Shown here piece after piece: positions 7,222 to 43,136 of a DNA stretch of 64,000 bases. The translations under genes and the position numbers were made by a program. This DNA comes from a virus. The notes beneath the pieces were generated by a model that saw only the letters and a list, made by a program, of their open reading frames with translations, ran no database searches and was not told where the DNA came from. The stretch is from UHGV virus genome UHGV-0253196. One strand, written 5' to 3'. Each line of letters opens with the position of its first letter. Within the stretch, counting starts at the first letter, position 1.

Positions 7222-7225
7222 GCCG

Positions 7226-26422: not shown

Positions 26423-26614
26423 ATGAAATACGTAAAGGTAGAAAAGACCTGTGCTGTATGCAAGTGTGTTAGATGTGAGCACAACAGTCTTATAAACAGG
26501 GACTGTTTTAATTGCATTAAGTGTTACGGGTTTGCCAATTATGTTGATAAACATGGTGAGGGGTGTACCTATGATAAGAACAAAGAAAGAACGTTCAAAG
26601 AGACAGGAGAGTAG
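26423..26614 (+). CDS. Cys-rich small protein (8 Cys)
   Basis: CAVCKCVRCEH...CFNCIKCYG cysteine pattern. ATG 26423 follows RBS GGAAGG. Confidence 0.35.
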   Translation: MKYVKVEKTCAVCKCVRCEHNSLINRDCFNCIKCYGFANYVDKHGEGCTYDKNKERTFKETGE

Positions 26615-27092
26615 AGTTGCAAGAGAAGTAAACGGGCGTGTTACACTTGCCAGCGGCGCATTGTGGATGGCAAAAGGTGATGTGCGCAGTAGTGATTACT
26701 TAGTAGAGTGTAAGACCACAGAAAAGAAAGTATACCCGTTAAGTATTAAGACGTGGTTAAAGATAACAGATGAAGCTACAAGTGATGGGTTCCGTATTCC
26801 TGTTATGTGTATTGACCTTGAAGACGGGGTGCACAAGAAAGCAGTGTTTAAGTGTTCAGACTTCTTTGAGGACAAACCGCGTAGGGTAGTAAGAAGTTCT
26901 GGTCTATTCTACGAGGAAGATGATACCATAGAATCAGAACGTTATTTGACCGCAAAACAAGTACCTGTCACTGAAAAGGATAAGGTGTTTTATGTGTCCG
27001 GGAAAATAGAACACGTTACCATGTCTTTTGAATTATGTGTTGTAGACTGGGACGTGTTTGTAAGACGAGTTATAGAGAAGGAGGTATCATAA
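26571..27092 (+). CDS. PD-(D/E)xK nuclease, Holliday-junction-resolvase-like (RecU/Hjc type)
   Basis: E..(D)..ECK arrangement: ESRVAREVNG...AKGDVRSSDYLVECK. It is a paralogue of 29319..29795. Confidence 0.5.
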   Translation: MIRTKKERSKRQESRVAREVNGRVTLASGALWMAKGDVRSSDYLVECKTTEKKVYPLSIKTWLKITDEATSDGFRIPVMCIDLEDGVHKKAVFKCSDFFEDKPRRVVRSSGLFYEEDDTIESERYLTAKQVPVTEKDKVFYVSGKIEHVTMSFELCVVDWDVFVRRVIEKEVS

Positions 27093-27472
27093 TGAATGTT
27101 AAGCACTTGAACATTGCGGTCGTGTGTAATGGGCGCAGAGAGTTAAACGCCGCTATGTTTGATATAATAGAGGCTGAAAATTCAAAAGGTGCTATCGTCC
27201 AGAAATATATTAAAGGACAGGAATTGCGTGTTATGTACCCAGAACTTATAGTCATCTTTAAAGCAATACTCGTAGGTGATTACAGAAACGCACACGGTAT
27301 GCGTTATGATGGTGTATTGTACGAGACAGGCAGTTTCTACGCCAGAGAGTTTGCATTAGAGGTGGTGGAGTGTTGCACACTGAAAAGCAAGATAGCAGAG
27401 GCGTTTCATTTAATGGAAATATCACAGTATTTGAGAAGTAAACACATTTACAGGTGTGTAAAAGGAGACTAG
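27092..27472 (+). CDS. hypothetical protein
   Basis: RBS AAGGAGG precedes ATG 27092. Confidence 0.45.
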   Translation: MNVKHLNIAVVCNGRRELNAAMFDIIEAENSKGAIVQKYIKGQELRVMYPELIVIFKAILVGDYRNAHGMRYDGVLYETGSFYAREFALEVVECCTLKSKIAEAFHLMEISQYLRSKHIYRCVKGD

Positions 27473-27475
27473 CAG

Positions 27476-28372
27476 ATGGCTTTAAAAGACTACTATTCGG
27501 CAATGAATAAGACAGACAGTTTTGTCATTAAACCGCTGGACATTTACCTTATGTCCTTGAATAAAGAAGACAATGACAGGGCTATTGATGTTAATGCACC
27601 TTCACAGATTGGGACGTGTATGCGCGCTAGATACTATGCGCGTACCAAGACCGAGAAAGACGGGTGTGCAGTGAGCGCAAGAGCAAGACGAATATTTGAT
27701 AACGGGAGCGGTATGCATGAAAGAATACAGCACTACCTCACAGAACAAGGTATGCTGGTGTTAGACGAGATACCCGTTGTTAATGACAAGTACAACATAC
27801 AGGGACACACAGACGGTCTTCTTGACTGTGTAGACGCGCACCGTGTGTTAGAGTTAAAGTCCATGAATGACCGGGAATTTAATAATCTTAAGAAACCAAA
27901 AGACGAACACGTTATGCAGGGTCTTGTGTACGTGTTCTGTATTGAAACCCGGAGGAAATATTTACACCAGAGATACAAGACCTATGAGCAGTTTTTAATC
28001 TGTAAAGCGGCACGTATGAGAAGTTACGCTAAATACTATCAGCATTTGAAAGGAGGTAGAAAACACACCCGTGAAGAAAAGATTAGGTTCCAGTGTGAGT
28101 TACACAATAAGATGGACAGAATCTTAATGAAAGTGAACAAGCCTATCACTGATGTGGTGTTTCTTTATGAGAACAAGAACAACCAGGACTTGAAAGAGTT
28201 CCTTGTAAGCACCAAAGAGGCCCAATCAAAGGTCATTCTCAAAAACATACTTGATGATTGTGTTTATCTCAATGAGTGTGTGCGGCGTAAGAAAGTACCA
28301 CAGAGAGAATTTGAAAGCAGGTCAAGTCAAGGGTGTAAGTATTGTAACTACAAGACAGAGTGTTGGCTATAA
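27476..28372 (+). CDS. Cas4/RecB-family PD-(D/E)xK exonuclease with a C-terminal Fe-S cysteine cluster
   Basis: N-terminal Cys (GTCMRARYY). D/E...ELK core (HTDGLLD...LELKSMN). C-terminal CKYCNYKTEC. Confidence 0.6.
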   Translation: MALKDYYSAMNKTDSFVIKPLDIYLMSLNKEDNDRAIDVNAPSQIGTCMRARYYARTKTEKDGCAVSARARRIFDNGSGMHERIQHYLTEQGMLVLDEIPVVNDKYNIQGHTDGLLDCVDAHRVLELKSMNDREFNNLKKPKDEHVMQGLVYVFCIETRRKYLHQRYKTYEQFLICKAARMRSYAKYYQHLKGGRKHTREEKIRFQCELHNKMDRILMKVNKPITDVVFLYENKNNQDLKEFLVSTKEAQSKVILKNILDDCVYLNECVRRKKVPQREFESRSSQGCKYCNYKTECWL

Positions 28373-28389
28373 GAAAGGAGAATTAAGTT

Positions 28390-28665
28390 ATGACAAGAGA
28401 ATTAAAGGCGGCAATAGAAGACCTCAAAGAAGGTATTAATTTAATGTCAGAAGCCATTATCACTATAGTTACAGAGGTAGCAAAAGTGATTGACGAGGAA
28501 GACATAGATATTGACAGTGAAGAAGACCTTGAAGGATTTGTAGAAAGATTTTTAGAGACACCAGAAGAAGACCTTCCAGAGTTAGAGGAAATCACGGACG
28601 AAAACCCTGTAAACTCACGCGAAACACTGATAATTGAAGACGAGGATATAAGAGCATGGGACTAA
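28390..28665 (+). CDS. hypothetical acidic protein
   Basis: RBS AAGGAGAA. Confidence 0.45.
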   Translation: MTRELKAAIEDLKEGINLMSEAIITIVTEVAKVIDEEDIDIDSEEDLEGFVERFLETPEEDLPELEEITDENPVNSRETLIIEDEDIRAWD

Positions 28666-29213
28666 AGCCGAAACAGAAACAGCCACCTAACACCCCTACC
28701 AAAAAAGTTAATCCCCACCAGCTACACAAAAACTACATGGCAAACATGGAAGAACAGCTTAACAAAGAAGACATAGTGTTGTTTGACGAGGAACTACTAA
28801 ACGTAGACCAGGACTTTTTAAGTCTTCCATCACGTATCACAGAAGTACACCCAAAAGAACTAGGTGAATACTTAAGTGCATTTACACAGTACAAAATGTA
28901 CGTGAGGACTATACTGTCCCGCACTGAATTGTGTATCGAGGAAAAGAAAAGGGTATATACAGACGTGAGTAATCCTTACTACCGGGAATACACACAGTCC
29001 AGGTTATCAGAACGCGCAAAAGACCAGCTTGTGCAGAGTGAGCCGGAGGTGCAAGAAAGCTACTATGAATTGGTAGACTACATCAATAAGTCTAACACCC
29101 TAAAGAGTGTGTTAGAAAACATAGAGGACGCTATCTTTTTAATAAGTCGTGAAATATCCCGCAGAACAGGTGATATGAAGGACGAGAATAGACAGCACAA
29201 TGTAGGTAGATAG
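28656..29213 (+). CDS. hypothetical protein
   Basis: Overlaps the upstream stop. Confidence 0.45.
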   Translation: MGLKPKQKQPPNTPTKKVNPHQLHKNYMANMEEQLNKEDIVLFDEELLNVDQDFLSLPSRITEVHPKELGEYLSAFTQYKMYVRTILSRTELCIEEKKRVYTDVSNPYYREYTQSRLSERAKDQLVQSEPEVQESYYELVDYINKSNTLKSVLENIEDAIFLISREISRRTGDMKDENRQHNVGR

Positions 29214-29223
29214 TCAGTGTTTT

Positions 29224-29251
29224 AGTGCGTCTGAAATATGACGCACTTTTC
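29224..29251 (+). terminator. rho-independent terminator (AGTGCGTC..GACGCACT followed by TTTT)
   Basis: Perfect 8-bp stem. Confidence 0.65.
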
Positions 29252-29253
29252 AT

Positions 29254-29282
29254 TTGCTTAAATACATATAATGCGGTATAAT
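29254..29282 (+). promoter_or_regulatory. sigma-A-type promoter TTGCTT-17-TATAAT
   Basis: Read directly from the sequence. The track ATG at 29271 lies inside this promoter, so the real start is moved to TTG 29319. Confidence 0.55.
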
Positions 29283-29318
29283 GATAACCACAATAAAGTG
29301 CAGAAAGGAGTTAAGAAA

Positions 29319-29795
29319 TTGCCAAAGTTAAAGATTAACAGTAAGGGTGCAGAGAACAAAGAAAAAGTGCACAGAGAAGCCCAGAGAAGGGGAAAGAGAA
29401 ACAAAGTCAAAGGTGGTGAGTATGAACGCAAAGTTGCTGAAATACTCAAAGGTATGTTAGGTGTTGAGTTTGTGAGAACACCGCAGAGCGGAGGGTTTGC
29501 AAAGAAATCGGACGCAAACACCAAAGACTTTAGAGGTGACATTATACCGCTTGACGCAGACGTTGAGACGGTCTTGCATATAGAGTGCAAGAACTATAAG
29601 AACTGGGCCATGCCAAAGTGGGTAGCACAGGCTGAGAGTGATTGTCCCAAAGGTAAGATTCCTTGTATTATCTTCCACAAGTACGGAACCTCACGGGACT
29701 ATATCGTGTTAGACCTCAAACACTTCTTAAAACTTATCCATATCCCGGAGGTTATCATAAAGACCGTGACAAAGAAAAGGGGTGCTAGTAAATGA
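29319..29795 (+). CDS. PD-(D/E)xK nuclease (RecU/Hjc-like), paralogue of 26571..27092
   Basis: EYERKVAEILKG...FRGDIIPLDADVETVLHIECK. RBS GAAAGGAG lies 8 nt upstream of TTG. Confidence 0.5.
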   Translation: MPKLKINSKGAENKEKVHREAQRRGKRNKVKGGEYERKVAEILKGMLGVEFVRTPQSGGFAKKSDANTKDFRGDIIPLDADVETVLHIECKNYKNWAMPKWVAQAESDCPKGKIPCIIFHKYGTSRDYIVLDLKHFLKLIHIPEVIIKTVTKKRGASK

Positions 29796-30166
29796 TGGTG
29801 TTGTTAAATGTAAGCTGGGCTATTGTAGCGTGTGTGATTGCGCGATACCTTTACAAACACCCAATTTTAAGAATACATGGTCGTTCAATGTACCCCACAT
29901 ACAAAGATGGTGATGTTGTGCTGGGCTTAAGATACAACTACAAACACTGTGACATAAGACAAGGTTCTGTAGTTGTAGTGAATAGTCCGAATGGTGTTAA
30001 AGCCATAAAGAGAGCCACAGCGTTTAAGTACAAAGAAGGTATTATGTATGTGTGGGTTGAGGGTGATAACCCCAGTGAAAGTTATGACAGCAGAAACTAC
30101 GGGTGGTTGACTACAAAAGACATTGTAGCGATTGACCCTAAACCAAGAGTAAAGGAGAAAGTATAA
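29792..30166 (+). CDS. type I signal peptidase (S26 family, SipW-like)
   Basis: N-terminal transmembrane segment. GRSMYPT matches the catalytic Ser box. GDNPSESYDSRNYG matches SPase box E. Confidence 0.7.
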   Translation: MMVLLNVSWAIVACVIARYLYKHPILRIHGRSMYPTYKDGDVVLGLRYNYKHCDIRQGSVVVVNSPNGVKAIKRATAFKYKEGIMYVWVEGDNPSESYDSRNYGWLTTKDIVAIDPKPRVKEKV

Positions 30167-30168
30167 CC

Positions 30169-30468
30169 ATGGGTAAGACAGAAAACACCAACACCGAAGG
30201 AGTTACCATTGTCCATGTTTCCTCAGACACCAACGTGCAGAAGTTGGCAGGTAGTCTTTTAACTGCCATTGAAAATAGCACCGCTGTAGAGGTGAGAGCG
30301 ATTGGTGCCGGGGCAGTGAACCAGATGTATAAAGCTATCGCAAGTGCGAGAGGTTATGTTGCGCGTAAAGGACGTGACCTGTATATAAGACCCGGCTTTG
30401 ATGAAGTCATTGAAGAAGGTTCTGAAAAGACAAAGACCGTCATGGTCGCAAGACTTATTGTGATGTAA
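30169..30468 (+). CDS. SpoVS-like (stage V sporulation protein S) homologue
   Basis: AIGAGAVNQMYKAIASARGYVARKGRDLYIRPGF...TKTVMVARLIV aligns along the whole bacterial SpoVS. Confidence 0.7.
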   Translation: MGKTENTNTEGVTIVHVSSDTNVQKLAGSLLTAIENSTAVEVRAIGAGAVNQMYKAIASARGYVARKGRDLYIRPGFDEVIEEGSEKTKTVMVARLIVM

Positions 30469-30488
30469 GACCGAAAGGAGAAGTCATA

Positions 30489-30698
30489 ATGAGCAAGATA
30501 TTGGGGTATTTCACAGAAGACGAGATTTATTACCACGGAAAGAAACAACCACCTAGAAAGACCAAAATAATAGCCATAGGGTGTAACCCAATGTTTAGTA
30601 TTGAAGACTACGCCGAAGATGAAGATATACAGGTGTTAAGTGAAGACGAAAATTGGTACACCATAAAGAAGAAAGACATAATATTAGGGGAGTGTTAA
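30489..30698 (+). CDS. hypothetical protein
   Basis: RBS AAAGGAGAAG. Confidence 0.45.
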   Translation: MSKILGYFTEDEIYYHGKKQPPRKTKIIAIGCNPMFSIEDYAEDEDIQVLSEDENWYTIKKKDIILGEC

Positions 30699-30699
30699 T

Positions 30700-31086
30700 A
30701 TGAAAACGAGTATTACAAAAATGTTCACCTTTGAAGCGGCACACAGATTACCTAACTATGTAGGTGCGTGCGCTAATCTTCACGGTCATTCTTATAAACT
30801 TGCCGTGACTGTCACCACAGATAAGCCTTTAAATAAAGACCGCAACGCAACGGGTATGATAATGGATTTTAAAGTCCTCAAAGACATTGTGAACCGAAAG
30901 GTTGTCGGCCCGTTAGACCATTCACTGTTAAATGACTTTTACTACAACCCCACCGCCGAGATTATGGTAGAAGACTTTGCCGCGAATATACAGGCAGGAC
31001 TTGATGATTTTGATGAAAGTGTGTACGTTTCAAACATTAAGTTGTGGGAGACCGAAGACAGCTATGCAGAGTGGTCGAGAGACTAG
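30700..31086 (+). CDS. queD: 6-carboxy-5,6,7,8-tetrahydropterin synthase QueD
   Basis: PTPS-fold signature FTFEAAHRLPNY...CANLHGHSY. 128 aa. Confidence 0.8.
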   Translation: MKTSITKMFTFEAAHRLPNYVGACANLHGHSYKLAVTVTTDKPLNKDRNATGMIMDFKVLKDIVNRKVVGPLDHSLLNDFYYNPTAEIMVEDFAANIQAGLDDFDESVYVSNIKLWETEDSYAEWSRD

Positions 31087-31103
31087 AGAAAGAGGTGTTG
31101 TAT

Positions 31104-31745
31104 ATGATGTTCTATCATGAGATATTTTTATCTATACAGGGTGAATCCAGTGACGCAGGACGCCCTTGTATATTTGTAAGAATGTACGGCTGTCCGATTG
31201 GGTGTTCATATTGCGACCAGCCCCAGGAAAAGAGTGACAGAAAGCGTATTGGTGTTGACACCATGTTATCAAAGATATACGCATTGAAGTGTAAGAACGT
31301 GTGCTTCACAGGTGGAGAACCTATGATTTACGCGCAGGAACTTATACCCGTGTTTATCGAACTTACCGACCGGGGCTACACCGTGTCCGTAGAGACCAGC
31401 GGGTGTGTAGAGTTAGAGTCTTACCCCGTGAGAAGGTCATTTAAGTACGTGATGGATATTAAATGCCCCAGTAGTGAGGTGTCAGAGAAGAACATTTACA
31501 GAAACCTTGCGTACTTACAGCCACATGACGAGGTGAAGTTTGTCGTGGCAGACGAGAAGGACTACCAATTTGCCCGTAACGTGTTAAAGCGTTATAATAC
31601 CAGTGCGCAAATTTTATTTAGTCCCATGTTTGACACAGACGGCAAAGCAGTGATAGGACAAGAACTTGTGAACTGGATTTTGAGAGACAAGCTGTTTAAT
31701 GCCCGGGTTCAGATTCAGTTACACAAAATTCTGTCAGTGAGGTAA
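31104..31745 (+). CDS. queE: 7-carboxy-7-deazaguanine synthase QueE (radical SAM)
   Basis: IFLSIQGESSDAGRPCIFVRMYGCPIGCSYCD is a QueE-type N-terminus with a CxxxCxxC cluster. GGEP motif. RBS AGAGGTG. Confidence 0.8.
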   Translation: MMFYHEIFLSIQGESSDAGRPCIFVRMYGCPIGCSYCDQPQEKSDRKRIGVDTMLSKIYALKCKNVCFTGGEPMIYAQELIPVFIELTDRGYTVSVETSGCVELESYPVRRSFKYVMDIKCPSSEVSEKNIYRNLAYLQPHDEVKFVVADEKDYQFARNVLKRYNTSAQILFSPMFDTDGKAVIGQELVNWILRDKLFNARVQIQLHKILSVR

Positions 31746-31749
31746 ACAC

Positions 31750-32472
31750 ATGATTGGAAAACGTAACCCAGAAAAAGACCAAGACTATTACAATGGTCTG
31801 ATTGAGAGTATATGGTATAATCTAGTAGAGGTTAAATCAGAACTTACAGGTATTAAAGAGGAAGTAAACAAAGACCATCCATTTAAAGAAGACCCAGGAC
31901 ACCTTAGTGCTGAAAGATTACCCGTAAAGAAAAATACTATTAGGGAGCACTTAAAGGAGGGTTATCTTCCTAAAAGACCCGTTAAGGTGTTCAGTAACCG
32001 GGACGAAGCATATGATTGTTTATACTACTGGTTAGAGAAGTTATATCTTACCGATTGGGCCATAAAACTTAAATTCGTGCGGATAAATGAAGAACCACTT
32101 AATGACGAACAGTCTGGCGACGTACGCAGAGTATTTGAGCAGAAAGCGGCGATAATCACCCTTCCATTGCCAGACGATAACTTTCTTGACGCTTGCAAAA
32201 GCAGTGTTGCGAGAGTGGGCCACGAACAGTCTTTGGTGCATGAGTTATTGCACTTAAAGGAAGACCCTGTACAGTTTGTAGAAGATGGTGATTATACCGC
32301 CGGGTTCTATAACATACACAAACACAATGAAGTTGAAATGATGGCAAGAACACTGTTAATGGTGAAGTACAACTTATCGCCGTCTTACTTCAATAACGTA
32401 GACAGAAAGGAGAACGACAATGGCTTGTGGCACAAAGAAACCGAAGACACCGAAGAAACCCAAAAAGAATAA
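31750..32472 (+). CDS. hypothetical protein with an HExxH motif (HELLH)
   Basis: SLVHELLHL. It lies inside the deazaguanine cluster. Confidence 0.4.
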   Translation: MIGKRNPEKDQDYYNGLIESIWYNLVEVKSELTGIKEEVNKDHPFKEDPGHLSAERLPVKKNTIREHLKEGYLPKRPVKVFSNRDEAYDCLYYWLEKLYLTDWAIKLKFVRINEEPLNDEQSGDVRRVFEQKAAIITLPLPDDNFLDACKSSVARVGHEQSLVHELLHLKEDPVQFVEDGDYTAGFYNIHKHNEVEMMARTLLMVKYNLSPSYFNNVDRKENDNGLWHKETEDTEETQKE

Positions 32473-32487
32473 GAAGTAGGACAACCG

Positions 32488-32518
32488 AAGACCTGTGCTA
32501 ATAAAGACAGGTCTTTTC
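32488..32518 (+). terminator. stem-loop (AAGACCTGT..ACAGGTCTT followed by TT)
   Basis: Perfect 9-bp stem. Confidence 0.5.
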
Positions 32519-32520
32519 GT

Positions 32521-32847
32521 ATGAAAGGAATACATGACATGGGACAGATATCAAAATTAGCTGAAAATGCGTATGAAACCGCAGTTGCGCACGGTTGGTA
32601 TGACACACCAGTTTCGTTTGGTGAGGAAGTTGTGTTGTGTCACAGTGAGTTATCCGAAGCACTACAGGAGTTTAGAGTAGGAGGGTTTGGAACACGTAAA
32701 GACAAGATAACTGAGGAACTAGCAGACACAGTTATAAGGATTTTTACTCTAAGTTCAAGACACCAGCTTGACATTGAAGCGGCAATATTAAAGAAGATGG
32801 AAAAGAACAAAGACAGACCATACAGACATGGAGGAAAGTTACTATGA
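32521..32847 (+). CDS. MazG-like nucleoside triphosphate pyrophosphohydrolase (start may be ATG 32539)
   Basis: EExxE...EELAD motifs: CHSELSEALQEFR, EELADTVIRIF. Confidence 0.6.
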   Translation: MKGIHDMGQISKLAENAYETAVAHGWYDTPVSFGEEVVLCHSELSEALQEFRVGGFGTRKDKITEELADTVIRIFTLSSRHQLDIEAAILKKMEKNKDRPYRHGGKLL

Positions 32848-34559
32848 GTAAACCAGTTGTAGTATTAAATAGTGGAGGTTTTGACAGCACCGTATTGTTA
32901 CATTATGTAAAAGAGGTTGAAGAAGACAGTCTTGTATACTCACTGTTTTTTGAATACGGTCAGCGTTCCATGGAACAAGAAAGACGCTGTGCGCGTAAAA
33001 ACTCTGTAGACCTTGACGCGCAGTATATAGGTGTCAGTCTTCCAAAGATATACTGGACTGGCAGTGACTTCTATAATGAGGGAGGGTTTAAGGTAGACAA
33101 GCAGTATCTTGAAATGAGAAATTTAATTTTTCTGTCATATGCTCTTTCCTTTGCAGAGAGTGTAGGTGCAGAAAAGGTTTATCTTGCAGTGCTGAAATCA
33201 CACCACGGGTATCCAGACACATCACCTAGATTTATTAGTGCTATGAATGAGGTATCGAATATAATAGGTGTTAGTATTGAAGCACCATTTATAGAGAGTG
33301 ACAAATACAACCTTGTTGGTCTTGCTTACAAGTACGGCATTACTGAAAACGACTTTCACAGTTGTGATAAACCTACTACAGACGGGAAACCGTGTGGCGT
33401 GTGTGATGATTGTGAGGTAGTAAAAGAAATCATGTCCCAGTTAGAGTTAAAACACCCACGGGACGTAAAGTTTAGTCCAAGAGGAACACATGAACAGTAT
33501 GAGACCGTCTATAAAGAGTACCCGGTGAGTGAGTTAAGATTCACCATAAATAACAGGTGCCAGTTTAGTTGCGCTCATTGTTACTACGGATATGAGACTT
33601 CACACCGGGAAGACCTATCAGAGAAGGAACTTACTGAATTTGCTATCAGACTTCACAAGCAGTTTGGGTTTAAGAGTATTCACTATTGCGGCAAAGAACC
33701 TATGATTGATAGCGCGATATTTGATTCCATAAGGACACTTAGGAAGGTGTTACCCGTTGACATTGAATACAGTGTTGTAACAAACGGCTTAACTGTGACT
33801 GAATACTATGAGCAGTTAGTGAATGAAAGGTTGTTAGACAAGGTGTTCCTGTCCGTTGATGATATTGAGACAGTGACGGATAAAGAACAGAAGTTACGAA
33901 ACACCAGTAGGCATATATTAAATGCTATAGACTTCCTGGTTACGAATAAAGTTCCGTTACAAGTGTTTATTGACCTTCACAAAGGTAACTACAACTACAT
34001 CAATGAAATGTTGTATCAGTTAGTGAAGTTAGGTGTTAGAGAGTTTTTCGTCCGGGCAATAATGCCAATAGGTAACGCCGAAGACCTTGAACCTCTGTCC
34101 ATAGCAGAGATAGCGGAAGTGTACAGTAAACTTAAGAGGTTGACAAACTATTACCACACCACCGTTAAAGACTTTAAAGTACTTCTTACTTTAGGTAAAG
34201 ACGTTATAGTCCGTATGCAGGAGCGTGACATTGACGATATGACAAAAGACGAGGAAGACTTAATAGAAATGGTTGCAAAGTCTTTAGAGTATAACACAGA
34301 CGTTGTTGTGCCGGGAATGAGTATATACCCGGAGGAAGTTTGCACACAGTTTCTTGATACTCTTACCCTTACATCAGACGGGTATGTGTTAGGCTGTACT
34401 TCCGCTGTAAGCTGTAGTGAGTACTGGAAACACAGCGCGTTTGATATAAATACACCAGACGAGGACTTCAAGAATCGTTTGATTGAAGCAAGAAGTAAGG
34501 TGTTAGAGTATGACGGTGAAAATTGTCCATTTTCTTGTCCCAAAAGTATTGACATTTAA
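32844..34559 (+). CDS. queC: fusion protein: QueC (7-cyano-7-deazaguanine synthase) N-terminal domain plus a radical SAM domain with a SPASM/twitch-like C-terminal Cys cluster
   Basis: N-terminus has VVLNSGGFDST (PP-loop) and the QueC zinc motif CDKPTTDGKPCGVCDDC. Residues from about 225 onwards have CQFSCAHCYYG (Cx3Cx2C), GKEPM, and C-terminal GCTSAVSC...CPFSC. Confidence 0.7.
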   Translation: MSKPVVVLNSGGFDSTVLLHYVKEVEEDSLVYSLFFEYGQRSMEQERRCARKNSVDLDAQYIGVSLPKIYWTGSDFYNEGGFKVDKQYLEMRNLIFLSYALSFAESVGAEKVYLAVLKSHHGYPDTSPRFISAMNEVSNIIGVSIEAPFIESDKYNLVGLAYKYGITENDFHSCDKPTTDGKPCGVCDDCEVVKEIMSQLELKHPRDVKFSPRGTHEQYETVYKEYPVSELRFTINNRCQFSCAHCYYGYETSHREDLSEKELTEFAIRLHKQFGFKSIHYCGKEPMIDSAIFDSIRTLRKVLPVDIEYSVVTNGLTVTEYYEQLVNERLLDKVFLSVDDIETVTDKEQKLRNTSRHILNAIDFLVTNKVPLQVFIDLHKGNYNYINEMLYQLVKLGVREFFVRAIMPIGNAEDLEPLSIAEIAEVYSKLKRLTNYYHTTVKDFKVLLTLGKDVIVRMQERDIDDMTKDEEDLIEMVAKSLEYNTDVVVPGMSIYPEEVCTQFLDTLTLTSDGYVLGCTSAVSCSEYWKHSAFDINTPDEDFKNRLIEARSKVLEYDGENCPFSCPKSIDI

Positions 34560-34576
34560 TACTCATGGTGTATAAT
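34549..34576 (+). promoter_or_regulatory. sigma-A-type promoter TTGACA-16-TATAAT embedded in the 3' end of the queC-fusion gene
   Basis: Read directly from the sequence. A 6-bp hairpin (GTAGGT..ACCTAC) lies in the leader. Confidence 0.55.
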
Positions 34577-34665
34577 TGTATTCAGAGATTTAGGAATGGC
34601 GTAGGTCTTCCGTATTTACCTACAGCCTAGTCCCTTGCTCACAATACGATAAGGAGGTAAACACC

Positions 34666-34842
34666 ATGATGAATGTTTACGCAGAATCCCCCAAAGGTGG
34701 CGGGCGTGCCGCTGGTGGTAATGCACAGCAGACTGCACCCGCACCGACCAGAGGTGGAGTAAGAGCCACACTGGGTAGAGCGGCTACAGGTGCAAGAAAC
34801 GCGCTGAACAGGATTATTCGTCCCAGAGGACGTAACCGTTAA
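34666..34842 (+). CDS. small Gly/Ala/Arg-rich basic protein (58 aa), markedly GC-rich, not in the track
   Basis: Strong RBS AAGGAGGT lies 8 nt upstream of ATGATG. It has its own promoter and terminator. Confidence 0.4.
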   Translation: MMNVYAESPKGGGRAAGGNAQQTAPAPTRGGVRATLGRAATGARNALNRIIRPRGRNR

Positions 34843-34864
34843 TCAGTCCCGCACCAAGAAAGAG

Positions 34865-34898
34865 AGAAGTCCTAATAAACTGGGACTTCTTTTCTTTT
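34865..34898 (+). terminator. rho-independent terminator (AGAAGTCC..GGACTTCT followed by TTTCTTTT)
   Basis: Read directly from the sequence. Confidence 0.65.
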
Positions 34899-34944
34899 AC
34901 CCGGATTTATGTTATACTGTCTTAAAAAGAAAGGAGACAACACA

Positions 34945-35199
34945 ATGTATATTGAATCACCAAGAGACAAAGAAGGAGTTAGAGACTGGGAAGCAGAAGA
35001 AGACGCACAGGCTTTATTAAAAGCCCGCCAAATTAACTCAGACCCCGTGAGAAAAGCGAAAGCACAGGCGGTTATAAGGAGTACCCAGGCCACGTTACAA
35101 GGTGCGTTGACTGGGACACCTCCTGTAAACACACCGAGTTCAAGAAATAACCCCGCCACTATCGGACAGTTAAACATTCCCGGCAGAAACAAAAGATAA
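34945..35199 (+). CDS. hypothetical protein
   Basis: RBS AAAGGAGACA precedes ATG 34945. Confidence 0.4.
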   Translation: MYIESPRDKEGVRDWEAEEDAQALLKARQINSDPVRKAKAQAVIRSTQATLQGALTGTPPVNTPSSRNNPATIGQLNIPGRNKR

Positions 35200-35254
35200 C
35201 ACCAGAACACCACAAACACATTATATACTTACAGAAGACAGAAAGGAATCGCGC

Positions 35255-35806
35255 ATGAACGATAAATACAATTTGAGTTCAAAAGAGCAGGAGATAGCCA
35301 GCCATATAAAAGGTATAATGAGTTTGCTAGGTATTGAGGAAACACCATCAAACATAGACACCCCAAAGCGGATAGCGAAAATGTATAGCCGCGAAGTGTT
35401 TAGCAGTGAAGGTAAAGACCTAGCCGAACTTGACGCACAAATGACTACTTTCATTAACACGGATTTAAGTTCAATGCCCGTGACAATGACCGGGATTAAG
35501 TTTAGTTCCATGTGTGCACACCACTGGCTACCATTTTTCGGTGAAGTAGAGATAAGCTACACACCGTTTACCAAAGTGATTGGGTTGTCAAAACTGCCGC
35601 GAGTTGTGAAGTGGTTCAGTAAAAAGCCACAGACCCAGGAAGAAATGACGAAAGAGATAGGGAACTACTTAGCAGTGTTCCTTAATCCCCGTAAACTGTC
35701 CGTGAAGGTAACAGCATTGCATACTTGCGTAGCGTGTAGGGGAATTGAGAGCGTAGGGACAGAGACCATAACTGAATACAGATATAACAGAGGGGAAGAC
35801 GCTTAA
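35255..35806 (+). CDS. folE: GTP cyclohydrolase I FolE
   Basis: MCAHHWLPFFGEVEISYTP matches CEHHLVPF. GLSKLPRVVKWFSKKPQTQEEMT matches GLSKLxR...QERLT. Confidence 0.8.
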   Translation: MNDKYNLSSKEQEIASHIKGIMSLLGIEETPSNIDTPKRIAKMYSREVFSSEGKDLAELDAQMTTFINTDLSSMPVTMTGIKFSSMCAHHWLPFFGEVEISYTPFTKVIGLSKLPRVVKWFSKKPQTQEEMTKEIGNYLAVFLNPRKLSVKVTALHTCVACRGIESVGTETITEYRYNRGEDA

Positions 35807-35870
35807 CGGCGTCTTTTCTTTTGCGCGCAATATGATATAATAAGTACATAACTTATGAAAGAGGTGAACC

Positions 35871-36452
35871 ATGAAGGTAGCAATATTTAATGGCAGTTCA
35901 AGACAGCATAGTAACAGTGAACTAATCTCAGGTGAATTAAGACGTATATTTGAGCGTCTAGGGTATGACACCGTAGTGCTCAATGCAAGTGACATGACAG
36001 GCTGTAGACCATGTAATCAATGTGGATTCTGTAGTTCAGTAGGTAGCTGTATATATGAAAGAGATACTCTGGGACAACACCATATTAAATGTATATGGGC
36101 TAGTGACATATGGGTGATTGTAACACCTGTGTATTGCTTTTCCATGTCCCCGCCGACCTTGACGTTACTGTCCCGGTTTTATTCTTATGGCCCAGAAGTG
36201 TTGCAAGATAAAGTTGTGTCTTCTGTGATAGTAAGTGGCAGTAGCGGTAGATATGGTGGAAAGAGCCTTGTAAATGAATCCTTTAAGCGATACTTTGAAT
36301 ATACAGGTGCTAACTATACAAACAAGCCCATAGGTATCACTACAAACGACACCGTGTTAGAAGACCTGCATACACTTACACCACGGTTAAGACTATTTTG
36401 TAAAGACTTGATAAGGAGAGCGAAAAATGCTGAAAATAGTACCAAGGACTAA
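35871..36452 (+). CDS. iron-sulfur flavoprotein (NADPH-dependent FMN reductase fold with a compact Cx2Cx2Cx2C..C motif)
   Basis: MKVAIFNGSSRQHSNSE flavodoxin-like start. CRPCNQCGFCSSVGSC cluster. Confidence 0.55.
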   Translation: MKVAIFNGSSRQHSNSELISGELRRIFERLGYDTVVLNASDMTGCRPCNQCGFCSSVGSCIYERDTLGQHHIKCIWASDIWVIVTPVYCFSMSPPTLTLLSRFYSYGPEVLQDKVVSSVIVSGSSGRYGGKSLVNESFKRYFEYTGANYTNKPIGITTNDTVLEDLHTLTPRLRLFCKDLIRRAKNAENSTKD

Positions 36453-38595
36453 AAAGAAACCCGTACCAAAGAAAAAGGTTCCACCAAAAAAGAAGACCAC
36501 CACGCCCGTAGAGATAGACGAGACCCCGGAAGTAGAGGAAGAACCAAAAAAGAACTATAGTTCTCTGCATGATGTAATGGACACTAACAGACCTTTTAAG
36601 TTAGTGTTTTCTGGCGTTGAGAATGAAAGCTACTATGACATACTTTTTGATTGCGGCGTGCGTAGCTTTCTAATGTCCTATCACTATATCCAGAGCAAGC
36701 ACATTAAAATGCGTGATAGGTTTGATGGGACGGGTGTTAAACTGTTTATTGATAGTGGCGCGCATACATACCAGAATGACCCTAAATATCTGGAACTTCC
36801 GTTAGAGTATTGGGAGAAGCACTTGCAGAAGTACCTTAACTGGGTTGAGCGGAATAGAAAGTATATATTTGCCATAGCAAGTTTTGACTTTGAGAACATT
36901 GTAGGTGCAGACACAGTAGATAGGTGGAACCGAGAATACTTAGAACCGTTCATGTTGCGCACAGGTATACCAGTGTGTTTCGTGTGGCACCAAAATTCAA
37001 AGTATGACTGGGAGTTCTATTGCAAGCGTTATCCCTATGTGGGATTTTCGTCTGTCAATACAGAAGGTGAAGCCATAGAACTATCAGAGTATAAACAAAG
37101 ACTGAAAGTGGCAGAGAAGAACGAAGCACTTGTACACGGGTTCGGTATGACGCGTACAGGTATGTTGACTGAACTTCCCTTCTACACCTCAGATAGTACG
37201 ACATGGCTTGTGGGTTTGCAGTATGGGGAAATGAACTACTGGAATGGCACCAAAATGAACCGCCTTAAGAAAGACAAGTGGAAATCACCTGCTGTACTAT
37301 CAGAGTTTGAGAGAAGGTATAACTCAGACCAAACACTGTTAGAGCAGGAAGACATAACCGAGGTGATAAAAGTCAATGTGTTTGCTTTCCTTGACGCAGA
37401 GGATTATATCGTCACCAAGCTACGTTCTCAAATGTACTGGTTAAAAGCAAAGACAACTAAACGGGACGTGAATAACTTACCGCCAGACTTCTTTCCAGAC
37501 CCTGACATGGTGATGGTGTGTTTAGACGAAGGTGATAAAAGTGTAGTGTCATATGCTCAGAAATTTAATATCAACCCGGAATATGCTGACGCTGACTTTT
37601 TAGTGTGTTGTGCTACATTGTTCCTTAACTGGGATAACTCAATATACAGTGACTGTAAGGACATACTCATTGAGGACGAAGCAGTGATTAAATCCCTCCA
37701 TGACACACTGATAAACAGGATAGTCCCAGGTGTTGATGAAATGGTCGAAGACCTAACGCAGTTATTCAAAGAGTGCATAAGCGGCGAGAATGACAAGCTA
37801 TTACAGATAGGCACCAACTTTGACCGCGCACAGAAAGAGCGTGAACACTATATAGAGGAAGAAGACGAGTATGAGGAAGTAGAAGTATCAGAAGGTGAGA
37901 TAAGGGCCGCTGTGTATAACAACATTCCTAAAGACCGTCTTCTTACCGCAGGTGAAGATTCCGCGCCAGAGATTACGGAACTTGACGCAGAAATATTTAA
38001 CGGCACAGGTATAACACCACGTTTTGATGATAGAGGTAAATTCCTTAAAGGTGTTAGACAAGTAAAGAAACCAAAGTCCGTGTACAGTAAGAAGTTCCCT
38101 AAACTGGCGTGTGCTACGTGTTTCGCGGCAAGTACGTGTCCAGAATACAAAGACGGCTATGTGTGTGCTTATAATAAGCTGTTCAGCAACTATGACACAC
38201 GTAACATGGGTGACATTGTAGAAGCTATGCAATCCATGGCAAGTGTGAACATGGGCCGCCTACAGAAAGCAATGCTGTTTGAGACACTAGGTGGTGCATT
38301 AGACCCACAGGTATCACAGCTTATTAATCAGAACGTCACTTTGCTGAACAACCTTAAGTCAATGTATGAGAACACCAACGCAATGGTGCTTAAACAGACC
38401 CGCAATATAAGACAGGACGGAAGTGTAGAAGAATCTGTGCAAGTAACCAATCCTCAGAGCATGGGTATTATGGAACAGTTACTATCAAAGATAATGCCTA
38501 GTAGTGATAAAGAAGACGAGGTTATAGTTGAATCAGAGGACGTAACACCCAAAAAGAAAAGCAGTGCATATGCAGACCTGGAAGAAGACGATTAA
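36427..38595 (+). CDS. dpdA: DpdA-like tRNA-guanine-transglycosylase-fold protein (putative DNA 7-deazaguanine transglycosylase) with a lysine-rich N-terminus and a roughly 400-aa C-terminal extension
   Basis: LFIDSGAHTYQ is compatible with the TGT DSGGFQ Asp motif. HGFGMTRTGMLTELPFYTSDSTTW fits GxGxT...DxFDC. It is co-located with folE, queDEC. A late Cys cluster CATCFAASTC...C is present. Confidence 0.5.
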   Translation: MLKIVPRTKKKPVPKKKVPPKKKTTTPVEIDETPEVEEEPKKNYSSLHDVMDTNRPFKLVFSGVENESYYDILFDCGVRSFLMSYHYIQSKHIKMRDRFDGTGVKLFIDSGAHTYQNDPKYLELPLEYWEKHLQKYLNWVERNRKYIFAIASFDFENIVGADTVDRWNREYLEPFMLRTGIPVCFVWHQNSKYDWEFYCKRYPYVGFSSVNTEGEAIELSEYKQRLKVAEKNEALVHGFGMTRTGMLTELPFYTSDSTTWLVGLQYGEMNYWNGTKMNRLKKDKWKSPAVLSEFERRYNSDQTLLEQEDITEVIKVNVFAFLDAEDYIVTKLRSQMYWLKAKTTKRDVNNLPPDFFPDPDMVMVCLDEGDKSVVSYAQKFNINPEYADADFLVCCATLFLNWDNSIYSDCKDILIEDEAVIKSLHDTLINRIVPGVDEMVEDLTQLFKECISGENDKLLQIGTNFDRAQKEREHYIEEEDEYEEVEVSEGEIRAAVYNNIPKDRLLTAGEDSAPEITELDAEIFNGTGITPRFDDRGKFLKGVRQVKKPKSVYSKKFPKLACATCFAASTCPEYKDGYVCAYNKLFSNYDTRNMGDIVEAMQSMASVNMGRLQKAMLFETLGGALDPQVSQLINQNVTLLNNLKSMYENTNAMVLKQTRNIRQDGSVEESVQVTNPQSMGIMEQLLSKIMPSSDKEDEVIVESEDVTPKKKSSAYADLEEDD

Positions 38596-38610
38596 ACCCG
38601 TCTTCTTTTC
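38584..38610 (+). terminator. rho-independent terminator (GAAGACG..CGTCTTC followed by TTTT)
   Basis: Read directly from the sequence. Confidence 0.6.
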
Positions 38611-38626
38611 CATTTTACAGGATTAC

Positions 38627-38654
38627 TTGACAGTTTCCTTATTAAAGCTATAAT
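38627..38654 (+). promoter_or_regulatory. sigma-A-type promoter TTGACA-16-TATAAT
   Basis: Read directly from the sequence. Confidence 0.6.
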
Positions 38655-38692
38655 AATGCCATTAAACACCCAATACGAAAGCGAGGAACACC

Positions 38693-39436
38693 ATGAAGAA
38701 ATCAACTCTATTTAAAATGACAAGGCCGCACCCAATTAAAGCATTTTTAGACCGCATAACCCGCAAGTTTATGGACTGGGTAAATAACCTGCTTTTAGCC
38801 ATGACTAAACACCCGCTCTTTGGGAAGTTCGTAAAACTGCATGAGAAAAGAACTGTACACCCCTTTAGAAATCTGTCTGATGGCATAATGCACTTAGGGA
38901 CTGTTAGTGATTCATATATGACCTGGACAGCCACAGGTATTCTTGAGTGTGTAGAAACCAGCATTAAATCACACATAACCATATTTGACCGGGGCCGTTT
39001 CTTTGAACATGAGCAGTGCTGGGTAGACAAGAACGTGCGTTGCAAGTTAGGTATAACAAGACTTACCGTGTTGTTGAACGGCGAAATTAAAGAGATAGAA
39101 GCGCGAGGTAAAAGACAATGGTTTAATATCTATAACACCCATACTACATTAGCACCATTTGACCTTCATGATGGCAATACTAAAGAGGTGCGAGAAGAAA
39201 GAGTGGTCGTTAATTTCAGTGAGGTGATGGGATATAACTTTAGAATACCCGTAACAATAGGTAGTATGTGTAACATGACCGAGGATGATATTATAGTCGA
39301 GACAATGATGTGTATTAGACATTTCGCAGAAAACAACTATGAGTTATACCGGGAAGTGTTTGATAAGTGTGTTATACCCAATGACTTAACATGGATAACA
39401 CCCATTCCAGAAATTAGGCCACTGAGAAAGGAATAA
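38693..39436 (+). CDS. hypothetical protein
   Basis: RBS AGCGAGGAACACC. Confidence 0.5.
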   Translation: MKKSTLFKMTRPHPIKAFLDRITRKFMDWVNNLLLAMTKHPLFGKFVKLHEKRTVHPFRNLSDGIMHLGTVSDSYMTWTATGILECVETSIKSHITIFDRGRFFEHEQCWVDKNVRCKLGITRLTVLLNGEIKEIEARGKRQWFNIYNTHTTLAPFDLHDGNTKEVREERVVVNFSEVMGYNFRIPVTIGSMCNMTEDDIIVETMMCIRHFAENNYELYREVFDKCVIPNDLTWITPIPEIRPLRKE

Positions 39437-39438
39437 CT

Positions 39439-39467
39439 TTGACAGCATTTACCATATGTGCTACACT
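39439..39467 (+). promoter_or_regulatory. sigma-A-type promoter TTGACA-17-TACACT
   Basis: Read directly from the sequence. Confidence 0.5.
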
Positions 39468-39514
39468 GTACCAGTATCACTATTAAACAACCACATACAA
39501 AAGGAGGAAAAGAA

Positions 39515-40195
39515 ATGGCAGTAATCAGAACAAGTACAGGTGAGAAGCCCAAGAGAGGAGAGCTGTACTACGTCTATCCGCAGATGGCGTGGGACAATGA
39601 TGATTCTGAGAAAGGGACAAGCAGAACTGATGTAAAGAGTGGGAGACCCGCTATCATTATTGGTAATGACGCTGGGAATGGTGCTTCTGATATGTGTGTT
39701 ATTGCGTGGCTTACACGTCAAGACAAAGCACCTTTACCAGAACACGTTACAGTACCTTCCGGCCCCGCCAAAGAATCAACTATGTTGCTGGAACACCCCA
39801 TCACCGTGTCTCAATCGCGTTTAGGTGAAAAGATTAGCACCTGTTCCACACCATTAATGAAGAAAGTTGATTCTGCATTGCTGGTATCTATAGGTATATG
39901 TGATACCTTACAAGACGCTGAATATCTGTTAAAATGTCGTGCTATGGTGTATGACTTGCAAGCGCAGGTAGATACATATAAGCACGAACTTAAAGAGAAA
40001 GACGCGGAAATTAAATCATTAAAAGATAAACTTGAAGTTAGTGACACCAATATAAGGGATTTAAGTAACAGGTTAGAGTGTGCAGAAAATCAGAACACCT
40101 ATAACCCAAGTGATTTAAAACTTGAATTGGTGTTAAATGAGCGGGATTATTTGAGGGACCTTGTTAAGCTGTCAATGACAGGAGGTATTATCTAA
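39515..40195 (+). CDS. MazF/PemK-like (CcdB/MazF fold) domain protein with a C-terminal coiled coil
   Basis: GELYYVYP, KSGRPAIIIGND, MCVIAWLTRQ, PEHVTVP and ESTMLLEHPITVSQSRLGEKI parallel the MazF/PemK motifs GDIVxVDF, RPAVVLS, VVVPLTS, HVxL and IDKxRL. Confidence 0.45.
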   Translation: MAVIRTSTGEKPKRGELYYVYPQMAWDNDDSEKGTSRTDVKSGRPAIIIGNDAGNGASDMCVIAWLTRQDKAPLPEHVTVPSGPAKESTMLLEHPITVSQSRLGEKISTCSTPLMKKVDSALLVSIGICDTLQDAEYLLKCRAMVYDLQAQVDTYKHELKEKDAEIKSLKDKLEVSDTNIRDLSNRLECAENQNTYNPSDLKLELVLNERDYLRDLVKLSMTGGII

Positions 40196-40256
40196 TGAGT
40201 GTGAGAAGGGACGTATATTTAAGTAGACACGTTATACAGTGAAAGGGGGCATACAT

Positions 40257-40562
40257 ATGACAAATAAACAGCGAGAGGATTATGCCCGTTATATTTCACG
40301 ATTGACAATACAAGAATTGGGCGAAGAATGGGACAGCGTAACAGAAGACATTTTAAGAAAGGCACACAAGAAGCGCAAGACCAATGATAAAATTGTAATT
40401 GAATACCCATGGGTAAAGAAGCAGGAAGAAACACCATCTAAAAAGGTGTTGAAAGTCAGAAAAAAGAAAAAACATAAACCTTCTTTGTGTGCGAAAAAGA
40501 AGGGAAAGAAGAAATGCAAAAGATTTATACCCCCCGTACCAGGGAGAAAGCGCAACAATTAA
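40257..40562 (+). CDS. hypothetical protein with a highly basic Lys-rich C-terminus
   Basis: RBS AAAGGGGG precedes ATG 40257. Confidence 0.45.
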   Translation: MTNKQREDYARYISRLTIQELGEEWDSVTEDILRKAHKKRKTNDKIVIEYPWVKKQEETPSKKVLKVRKKKKHKPSLCAKKKGKKKCKRFIPPVPGRKRNN

Positions 40563-40759
40563 TATCGTATTACATTTCAAAGTGGGAACAGTCTAATCAC
40601 CCGGTAGTCATTAAAGACGCAGACTTAGAAGACCTTGTAAAAGCTATTTACAGACGGGCCGCGAACACAAAGACTACAGAACGTGAAGCAGTATGGGACT
40701 ATTTGACAGAGTTCTACACAGATACACCAGAAGATGATGATTGGTTCATTGAAGATTAA
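40514..40759 (+). CDS. hypothetical acidic protein (overlaps the upstream gene in another frame)
   Basis: ATG 40514. The overlap makes this one uncertain. Confidence 0.35.
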   Translation: MQKIYTPRTREKAQQLISYYISKWEQSNHPVVIKDADLEDLVKAIYRRAANTKTTEREAVWDYLTEFYTDTPEDDDWFIED

Positions 40760-40897
40760 GTAGTTCATGTAGGATATGCACAGATGGAAGTTTGTGTGTA
40801 TCCTATTTTTGTGTTACAATACTTTGTAGAAACACCACACCGTTACATTAAGGGTCATTAGTGACCCACCATGAAATACATATAAGGAGGCCATATA

Positions 40898-41077
40898 ATG
40901 AGTAAGAAAGACGGAAACGCCCACGTAGTCCCTAACTGCACGATAACAAGGATGTTAAGTGCGAATGAGAGCAAAACACCTTTACCTACACTTGATAGTA
41001 AAGGAGTGTGCTCAGGTGTTATGAAAGGTAAAACACCATACGCGCTGTGTCAGCAGTGCCGAGTATTTAAGAAGTAA
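40898..41077 (+). CDS. small zinc-ribbon protein (59 aa), not in the track
   Basis: Strong RBS TAAGGAGG. Four Cys (NCT...C...CQQC). It is followed by a perfect 11-bp terminator hairpin. Confidence 0.45.
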   Translation: MSKKDGNAHVVPNCTITRMLSANESKTPLPTLDSKGVCSGVMKGKTPYALCQQCRVFKK

Positions 41078-41079
41078 GA

Positions 41080-41112
41080 AACAACGCCCTATATTGTACA
41101 GGGCGTTGTTTA
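41080..41112 (+). terminator. perfect 11-bp hairpin AACAACGCCCT..AGGGCGTTGTT
   Basis: Read directly from the sequence. Confidence 0.6.
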
Positions 41113-41132
41113 TCAAAGGAGGAAATAAATGT

Positions 41133-42951: not shown

Positions 42952-43067
42952 TACCATTAAAGCGGCGCACATTTAATTTAGTGTGACCGCTTTTCTTATG
43001 CCCGCCAGACGCACTAGAACGTCCATAAAGACCGGGAACAGCAGTGTTTAACACAATGTACGTGGGT

Positions 43068-43096
43068 TTGCATAATGTGTGTATTTGTGCTATACT
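43068..43096 (+). promoter_or_regulatory. sigma-A-type promoter TTGCAT-17-TATACT
   Basis: Read directly from the sequence. Confidence 0.55.
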
Positions 43097-43136
43097 ATGT
43101 GTAGTTGATAGAGACGTAGAAAAGGAGAGCGATACA

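Follow-up and report, generated by a model that had tools for sequence, protein, structure and literature searches.

The 64,000-nucleotide (nt) stretch of DNA analysed here, from UHGV virus genome UHGV-0253196 and called the window throughout, is a segment of a phage genome, as a preliminary description of it had supposed; every gene lies on the + strand and the guanine plus cytosine (GC) content is about 41%. The subject of this work is a pair of adjacent genes within it, which encode a signal peptidase of family S26 (29792–30166, +, 124 amino acids (aa)) and a homologue of the stage V sporulation protein SpoVS (30169–30468, +, 99 aa), both at the coordinates given in that description. The stop codon of the S26 open reading frame (ORF) and the start codon of the SpoVS ORF are 2 nt apart, and a strong Shine-Dalgarno sequence (AAGGAG) is found upstream of SpoVS. 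The S26 start codon in turn shares an ATGA with the stop codon of the preceding gene, which encodes a PDDEXK_15 phage endonuclease (29271–29795, +; Pfam 1e-22; phrog_244, "RusA-like Holliday junction resolvase", 3e-24); a shorter 158-aa form of this protein, starting near 29319, is called on identical contigs. A terminator-like hairpin, located by consensus scan only, lies just before the PDDEXK_15 gene (29224–29247, +), and the same scan found none between S26, SpoVS and QueD, the first gene of a 7-deazaguanine DNA-modification cluster (30700–38595, +) directly downstream. Because of this arrangement, PDDEXK_15, S26, SpoVS and the genes following them are probably co-transcribed.

Two further nucleases are predicted upstream, a second Holliday junction resolvase (26532–27092, +; phrog_2002 2e-22) and a Cas4-like PD-(D/E)XK exonuclease (27476–28372, +; phrog_1706 1.4e-38; PADLOC Cas4 6.6e-8), the latter at the same position as gp037 of Bacillus phage BCD7. 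Three predicted structure-specific or recombination nucleases are thereby encoded within 3.3 kilobases (kb) downstream of RecA. The Cas4-like gene and PDDEXK_15 flank a gene for a 185-aa protein (28656–29213, +) that had no match in Pfam or PHROG and whose position is conserved in BCD7-like relatives. None of the PADLOC defence models matched S26, SpoVS, PDDEXK_15 or the 185-aa protein.

Profile searches bear out the description of the second gene of the pair as a full-length SpoVS. Its product matched the Pfam SpoVS model (PF04232) with an E-value of 8e-23 and 80.4 bits (cutoff 24) over model positions 2–78 of 83, phrog_35646 with an E-value of 9e-25 and the sequence of Thermus thermophilus SpoVS (PDB 2eh1) with an E-value of 1e-11. 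An AlphaFold2 (AF2) model of the protein (predicted local distance difference test (pLDDT) score of 87.8) was compared with known structures by Foldseek, which returned 2ek0/2eh1 at a template modelling (TM) score of 0.79 and a root mean square deviation of 1.3–1.4 Å, followed by archaeal Alba and the RNase P/MRP subunits Pop6/7 and Rpp20/25. As modelled, the SpoVS homologue has an Alba-like β-α-β-α-β-β fold. For the SpoVS family as a whole, an Alba fold and DNA binding have been predicted, and members are found in non-sporulating phyla (PMC2732212, PMC11621453).

The phage protein shares family, fold and full length with cellular SpoVS (B. subtilis; T. thermophilus TTHA 2EH1, 2EK0; Alba superfamily), but is just 35–40% identical to it and has 13 extra N-terminal residues that are variable and not conserved. 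The two also differ in setting, as the phage gene adjoins nucleases whereas cellular spoVS lies beside a ymdB-like gene. To judge from these sequence comparisons, the window SpoVS belongs to an old viral clade. Its isoelectric point (pI) is about 8, and pI values of 8–10 are found for most phage SpoVS proteins. The cellular arrangement was seen in L011, a region (28177–44401) of the INPHARED record MT835471.1 ("UNVERIFIED: Bacteriophage sp.", human faeces), in which a canonical 86-aa spoVS stands amid chromosome-like genes; its neighbours, as read from ORF translations, are purA-like, a ymdB-like phosphoesterase, asp23-like, nusB, xseA and ispA-like. The record had been a candidate SpoVS-bearing faecal phage and was excluded as phage evidence because it appears to be bacterial chromosome in the SpoVS region. 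As a further lead only, an integrative model of a B. subtilis YunD-SpoVS complex (PDB 9a7h) is based on a single crosslink obtained in cells and scores modestly, at about 0.45.

The first gene of the pair could also be assigned to its family. The S26 protein matched the Pfam model Peptidase_S26 (PF10502; E=7.4e-14, 52.5 bits, cutoff 22.9) and the NCBIfam model of bacterial signal peptidase I (TIGR02227) at 51.7 bits (cutoff 47); its relatives score 54–74 bits with the latter. It contains the boxes GRSMYPT (residues 30–36), IKR and GDNPSESYDSRNYG (residues 91–104), the first and last of which the preliminary description had pointed out. The box E pattern G-D-N-x(3)-S-x-D-S-R is satisfied by GDNPSESYDSR (residues 91–101), which is invariant in the family. 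In particular, M33, P35, T36, K73, R74, G91, D92, N93, S97, D99, S100 and R101 are invariant in 11–13 family members, and S32 is invariant in an alignment of 11 sequences. In a HMMER alignment with SpsB, S32 falls on the catalytic Ser, which is Ala in the 4wvg mutant, and K73 falls on the catalytic Lys, that of VKR. On its sequence, the phage protein is a bacterial P-type Ser32/Lys73 signal peptidase reduced to a minimal core, and since the catalytic residues are invariant it is presumably active.

With the bacterial type I signal peptidases (SipS, SpsB, LepB; MEROPS S26A; TIGR02227) the phage S26 has in common the Ser/Lys dyad, the B, D and E boxes and a predicted hydrophobic anchor at the N-terminus, and its scores pass the curated cutoffs. 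It differs from them in having no β-hairpin region and no positively charged cytoplasmic tail, and in being phage-encoded within a replication operon. The absence of the non-catalytic β-hairpin region is deduced from the spacing between the KR and GDN boxes, which is only 18 residues in the window S26 and about 60 in SpsB/4nv4. A hydrophobic helix is predicted at residues 2–22 and is kept in all family members. No positive charges precede it and several follow, and all members are without the positively charged tail that is usual for N-in membrane anchors. The AF2 model (pLDDT 74) consists of this helix (residues 2–22) followed by a β core, and the best Foldseek matches were SEC11A/C and SpsB, at TM scores of about 0.53–0.55 with weak E-values. 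Few phages encode a type I signal peptidase (among 50,697 phage records BCD7 was the sole match), which gives the substrate of so reduced an enzyme some interest of its own.

The enzyme had initially been called SipW-like, a label that does not hold. SipW is a signal peptidase of the endoplasmic reticulum (ER)/archaeal type (S26B), which uses His and which in Bacillus processes TasA and TapA. The phage S26 belongs to the same peptidase clan, is similarly small and has one predicted anchor, at the N-terminus, and compact eukaryotic SEC11 subunits are its top structural matches in Foldseek. However, the invariant Lys73 in its KR box stands where SipW-type enzymes have His, and while it passes TIGR02227 it falls far under the cutoff of the archaeal/ER model TIGR02228 (28.8 bits, cutoff 51.85). 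The SipW model NF046067 gave no match for the window S26 and 24.8 bits (cutoff 190) in one relative only. Because the enzyme is not of the SipW type, the proposed link to TasA and matrix processing falls away.

The closest cultured relative of the window phage by DNA polymerase is BCD7 (NC_019515 / JN712910; PolA 38% identical), a myovirus with no annotated integrase. BCD7 contains the same pair as gp032, "putative signal peptidase I", and gp031, "sporulation protein" or "putative stage V sporulation protein S", in the adjacency, orientation and genome layout found in the window. The order in BCD7 is Cas4-like, two small genes, PDDEXK_15 ("RusA-like resolvase"), S26, SpoVS, QueD, QueE, QueC, FolE and DpdA. 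The proteins have diverged (SpoVS 43–53% identical, S26 29–30%) and, unlike in the window, an additional gene of 65 aa separates the nuclease from S26 in BCD7. The pair is not new, then, but is a diverged member of a gene pair that is already annotated and uncharacterised; we found no published discussion of BCD7 gp031/gp032. The window phage is a member of a BCD7-like (Becedseptimavirus-related) family with genomes of about 82 kb. A near-identity DNA search of positions 27000–33000 against cultured phages returned nothing, and the relatives came from protein searches.

In metagenome assemblies the window phage is common, its exact SpoVS sequence being found in 389 collection blocks on contigs of 78–85 kb. 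S26 and SpoVS are adjacent in nine IMG/VR contigs, including the genome of BCD7 itself and two contigs that are identical to the window, and the PDDEXK_15-S26-SpoVS triad is kept in metagenomic contigs with peptidase identities of 32–47%. Relatives keep the PDDEXK_15 gene immediately before S26: its stop and the S26 start overlap in the window, L025 and L026, and are within 1 nt of each other in L012 and L014. The same pair and gene order are present in L097, an 83.8-kb contig of 27% GC that was binned with a Thermosipho metagenome-assembled genome. The conserved block reads Cas4-like, 185-aa protein, PDDEXK_15, S26, SpoVS, QueD/E/C, FolE and DpdA. The family matches of S26 and SpoVS are far beyond chance, and both genes persist in diverged relatives. 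When 185,579 species genomes were searched, 55 S26 loci were retrieved and none showed the S26-SpoVS pair in a cellular genome; SpoVS was present at one of the 55, and that one is the phage-like contig L097. Recent capture of a host spoVS as a "moron" was considered and rejected on the 35–40% identity to cellular SpoVS and on the fixed position of the gene in the replication operon out to BCD7 and L097.

The pairing of S26 with SpoVS is not obligatory. In L023 (899–3951) and L025 (1432–3970), genes for a glutaredoxin-like protein and NrdD, and in L023 also NrdG, stand between S26 and SpoVS, with the identities of the inserted genes read from sequence and length. These insertions imply anaerobic hosts and show that the S26-SpoVS junction accepts insertions. 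In L032 and L034, PDDEXK_15 is followed directly by SpoVS and there is no S26. Because S26 is missing from the latter loci and split from SpoVS in the former, it seems to have been inserted, specifically in this lineage, into a nuclease-SpoVS pair that already existed, and not to be an obligate partner of SpoVS.

Viral SpoVS genes occur in at least 569 stretches in IMG/VR, and two samples of these were analysed. The first consisted of the 80 viral loci most similar to the window SpoVS; the 11 closest carry S26, and 68 of the 69 others could be analysed. A RuvC-like resolvase (~200 aa; phrog_159 4.6e-22) is encoded directly upstream on the same strand in 60 of these 68 S26-free loci, and PDDEXK_15 takes this position in two (L032 and L034; Pfam 1e-21 and 1e-19), where QueD and QueE lie downstream of SpoVS. 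None of the 68 loci contained S26, which is confined to the BCD7-like clade. Pfam did not recognise the RuvC-like neighbours, whose assignment rests on phrog_159 and on the GenBank annotations of the Streptomyces phages BRock (gp52/gp51) and LuckySocke (173/174), in both of which SpoVS is directly downstream of a RuvC-like resolvase. The second sample, of the 79 loci nearest canonical cellular SpoVS, is biased to host-like SpoVS. In it, a RuvC-like gene is upstream of SpoVS in 23 of the 79 loci, and 15 others have a RecT-like recombinase 1–2 genes downstream and a large SMC/AAA-like ATPase upstream; S26 and ymdB-like genes were absent from all 79. In about three viral lineages, SpoVS is thus located inside a recombination module beside non-homologous recombination enzymes. 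As its neighbours are RuvC-like, PDDEXK_15 or RecT in different lineages, unrelated recombination enzymes replace one another beside SpoVS.

The RuvC-SpoVS lineage (BRock, LuckySocke and many IMG/VR contigs) resembles the window in having a nuclease of junction-resolving type immediately upstream of SpoVS. It differs in the fold of that nuclease, which is RNase-H-like RuvC rather than PD-(D/E)XK, and has neither S26 nor a deazaguanine cluster. In the RuvC lineage a homologue of the window 185-aa protein is encoded two to three genes upstream of SpoVS (BLASTP 1e-6 over 130 aa), which makes the SpoVS module older than either nuclease type. Its N-terminal "LPxDITE" and C-terminal "SREISRR" stretches look alike by eye in L097, L034 and L072. 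In L072 a small putative nuclease is also found upstream of SpoVS. Separately, 22 loci of the RuvC lineage, among L028–L096, encode, three genes upstream of SpoVS, a 295-aa protein that has a signal peptide and motifs resembling those of subtilases (IDSGI, HGD, GTSNA; for example L064 1940–2827). This putative protease had no match in Pfam or PHROGs and is a second case of a secreted-peptidase-like gene near viral SpoVS.

We give about an even chance to the following joint reading: the pair forms part of a DNA-metabolism operon of BCD7-like phages in which SpoVS is a recombination accessory that binds nucleic acid and S26 is a mini signal peptidase inserted in this lineage. We infer nucleic-acid binding by SpoVS, a small and mildly basic protein, from its recombination neighbours, its Alba-like fold, the DNA binding predicted for its family and the occurrence of that family in non-sporulating phyla and in a Stenotrophomonas phage. 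We do not take it for a regulator dedicated to sporulation. SpoVS would have an accessory or architectural role in the junction-resolving and recombination machinery of the phage, which could serve recombination-dependent replication, the removal of branches before packaging or the handling of modified DNA. S26 would be a membrane-anchored, minimal Ser/Lys type I signal peptidase, inserted between PDDEXK_15 and SpoVS in this lineage only, that most likely removes leaders of the A-x-A type from a few exported or membrane-proximal substrates. The broader proposal, that viral SpoVS proteins are dedicated partners of junction-resolving or recombination enzymes (PD-(D/E)XK, RuvC-like and RecT modules), is more tentative, and we regard it as possible rather than probable.

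One candidate substrate for S26 is encoded in the window. The protein, a SleB/CwlJ-type Hydrolase_2 protein (51534–52118, +; Pfam Hydrolase_2 1.3e-13), has the predicted signal peptide MKKAVILTLWLIILMCVSFTAGA, followed by EEKE, with the cleavage-site-like sequence TAGA/EE. In a heuristic scan it was the only clear Sec-signal-peptide protein in the window, and on that basis it could, speculatively, be processed by S26. The gene lies far from the lysis cassette and has relatives in Enterocloster, Brevibacillus, Bacillus and Stenotrophomonas phages. A scan of IMG/VR for relatives returned nothing. As a conserved substrate of S26 the hydrolase was rejected for want of a BCD7 homologue, and it stays a candidate only. 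A second idea, by analogy with phage fOg44, was that a Sec-exported endolysin is the reason for a phage S26; the window has a Hol44-family holin. This idea was discarded, since no signal peptide is present in the endolysin of the window or in either of the two endolysins of BCD7.

Several points weigh against the reading of SpoVS as a recombination accessory and of S26 as an inserted signal peptidase. The pI of the window SpoVS is only 8.0, and we know of no SpoVS protein for which nucleic-acid binding has been shown experimentally. Genes can be adjacent in phage replication modules because they are expressed at the same time and not because their products cooperate physically, and the 60 RuvC-linked loci are a single lineage (49–100% identity), so that the independent observations come down to about three lineages. 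For S26, the lack of a positively charged N-terminal tail leaves the membrane orientation ambiguous, the candidate secreted hydrolase is without a homologue in BCD7, and a crude heuristic scan of BCD7 found no signal-peptide proteins. Finally, the host of BCD7 is the spore former B. cereus, and that of the window phage may be a spore-forming gut Firmicute. The hints to the latter are weak: the Shine-Dalgarno sites are strong, relatives of the endolysin come from phages of Monoglobales and Blautia, and relatives of the window phage have anaerobic NrdD/G; no close cellular matches and, in the window, no tRNAs were found.

The last of these points bears on the proposal of the preliminary description that the phage manipulates host sporulation or biofilm formation. 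SpoVS, with or without S26, would then perturb these programmes by mimicking or titrating host SpoVS, with a vegetative cell or entrapment in the spore as the outcome. The infection of B. cereus by BCD7 is consistent with this, as are the SleB/CwlJ-family hydrolase in the window and the origin of endolysin and hydrolase relatives from phages of gut Clostridia, many of which sporulate. Moreover, mutation of spoVS in B. subtilis causes a block at stage V and changes sigma-K/sigma-D dependent expression (Resnekov 1995, Perez 2006, as summarised in PMC2732212), and phage-encoded sigma factors of the sporulation type reduce spore yield (PMC9429907). Yet we found nothing that links the pair with sporulation or biofilm. 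Both genes lie in a replication, recombination and DNA-modification block, with SpoVS embedded in a DNA-metabolism operon rather than in a moron or host-takeover region, and the phage SpoVS has a low identity to cellular SpoVS and belongs to an old viral clade. In addition, viral SpoVS genes track resolvases and recombinases and are present in a Stenotrophomonas phage, and the S26-SpoVS pair recurs in the Thermosipho-binned relative. The peptidase is not of the SipW type, and Hydrolase_2 is an ordinary endolysin module that is also used by phages of Gram-negative hosts. Manipulation of sporulation is less parsimonious than a role in recombination, and we consider it unlikely.

SpoVS might instead be a DNA- or RNA-binding regulator, of host takeover or of phage expression, that has nothing to do with the nucleases, with S26 an unrelated accessory. 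Proteins of the Alba superfamily bind RNA as well as DNA, and the cellular spoVS of L011 lies beside a ymdB-like gene, a kind linked to RNA metabolism. A role of SpoVS as a transcriptional regulator was predicted by Rigden and Galperin (PMC2732212). This explanation leaves unaccounted for the repeated flanking of SpoVS by resolvases or recombinases in different viral lineages, and no promoter-like or operator-like features were identified. We therefore judge it improbable.

A third alternative concerns S26 alone. SodX is the leader peptidase of nickel superoxide dismutase (NiSOD) and is encoded beside its substrate. The phage S26 has the same minimal core of ~90 residues, and it matched the SodX model TIGR02754 at 39.8 bits (E=4.7e-10, model positions 2–84 of 90) against a cutoff of 63.25. 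The phage relatives score 36–56 bits, every one of them under the cutoff. As a positive control, a cellular locus, L098, whose peptidase is 39% identical to the phage S26, scored 75.6 bits and encodes SodX directly after SodN (TIGR02753, 159.7 bits). There, at 3459–4294, SodN (leader ...ERIAYA/HCDVPCGIYDP) is followed by a 111-aa SodX with a short hydrophobic N-terminus. The phage S26 thus has its minimal build, including a hydrophobic segment at the N-terminus, in common with dedicated leader peptidases. S26 could by analogy be a dedicated maturation protease of a nearby protein, SpoVS or PDDEXK_15, forming an enzyme-substrate module, and the SodX-sized core, the verified SodX beside SodN in a near cellular relative and the tight packing of PDDEXK_15, S26 and SpoVS, with stops and starts that overlap or nearly do so, agree with this. 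We nevertheless regard it as the least probable of the alternatives, as every phage member passes the general signal peptidase I model and none the SodX model, the window contains no sodN gene and no NiSOD motif (HC[DE]xPCG, searched in all frames), the N-termini of S26-paired SpoVS proteins vary in length and sequence, have no A-x-A site and in some cases almost no extension, the N-termini of SpoVS and PDDEXK_15 are similar in S26-free relatives, and NrdD/NrdG insertions break the adjacency of S26 and SpoVS. The variable N-terminal extensions without an A-x-A site also led us to reject SpoVS as the leading candidate for the S26 substrate.

The remainder of the window is organised as follows. 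Tail fibres (63–5000, +) are followed by a lysis cassette (6565–8341, +) and by the replication and recombination block, which encodes an intein-containing helicase, DnaB, primase, SSB, HU, PolA, RecA and the three nucleases. The 7-deazaguanine cluster downstream of SpoVS contains, all on the + strand, QueD (30700–31086), QueE (about 31104–31745), a 571-aa QueC-radical-SAM fusion (32844–34559), FolE (35255–35806), a flavin mononucleotide (FMN) reductase (35871–36452) and a 722-aa DpdA-like transglycosylase (36427–38595). The QueC-radical-SAM fusion is an unusual architecture for such a cluster; QueC with a C-terminal radical-SAM region is also found in L012 and L097, while QueC is ~206 aa in BCD7, L014 and L016. 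Past this cluster lie a MazF-like gene, a ligase and an intein-containing large terminase. The first of these encodes a PemK/MazF-like toxin domain protein (39458–40195; phrog_1936, 8.8e-19), for which no obvious antitoxin was identified. Inteins bearing LAGLIDADG homing-endonuclease domains split the ResIII/DEAD helicase (8484–11195) and the large terminase (59278–62934). Some near-identical contigs also have an intein in PolA (1–2999 in L004/L006/L007), which is 1092 aa there and 732 aa in the window; intein content differs between strains of the window phage.

The link between viral SpoVS and recombination enzymes is the more interesting by-product of this analysis. Viral spoVS is routinely reported in viromes as a sporulation-related auxiliary gene (e.g. 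PMC8940887). Because the viral gene travels with recombination nucleases and not with host-manipulation genes, our data suggest that the sporulation label is misleading, and if the link is real, annotation pipelines should stop taking viral spoVS as evidence of dormancy control. If viral SpoVS proteins are dedicated partners of recombination enzymes, the inserted, membrane-tethered S26 would link this module, in the BCD7-like lineage, with the membrane or with one particular protein that it processes. For the SpoVS family, whose function has been in question since 1995, such a partnership would provide a first molecular handle, and cellular SpoVS may turn out to be a cofactor in the processing of nucleic acids and not a factor specific to sporulation. 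The conserved nuclease-SpoVS pairs are a tractable system in which to address the biochemical function of this widespread and uncharacterised Alba-fold family.

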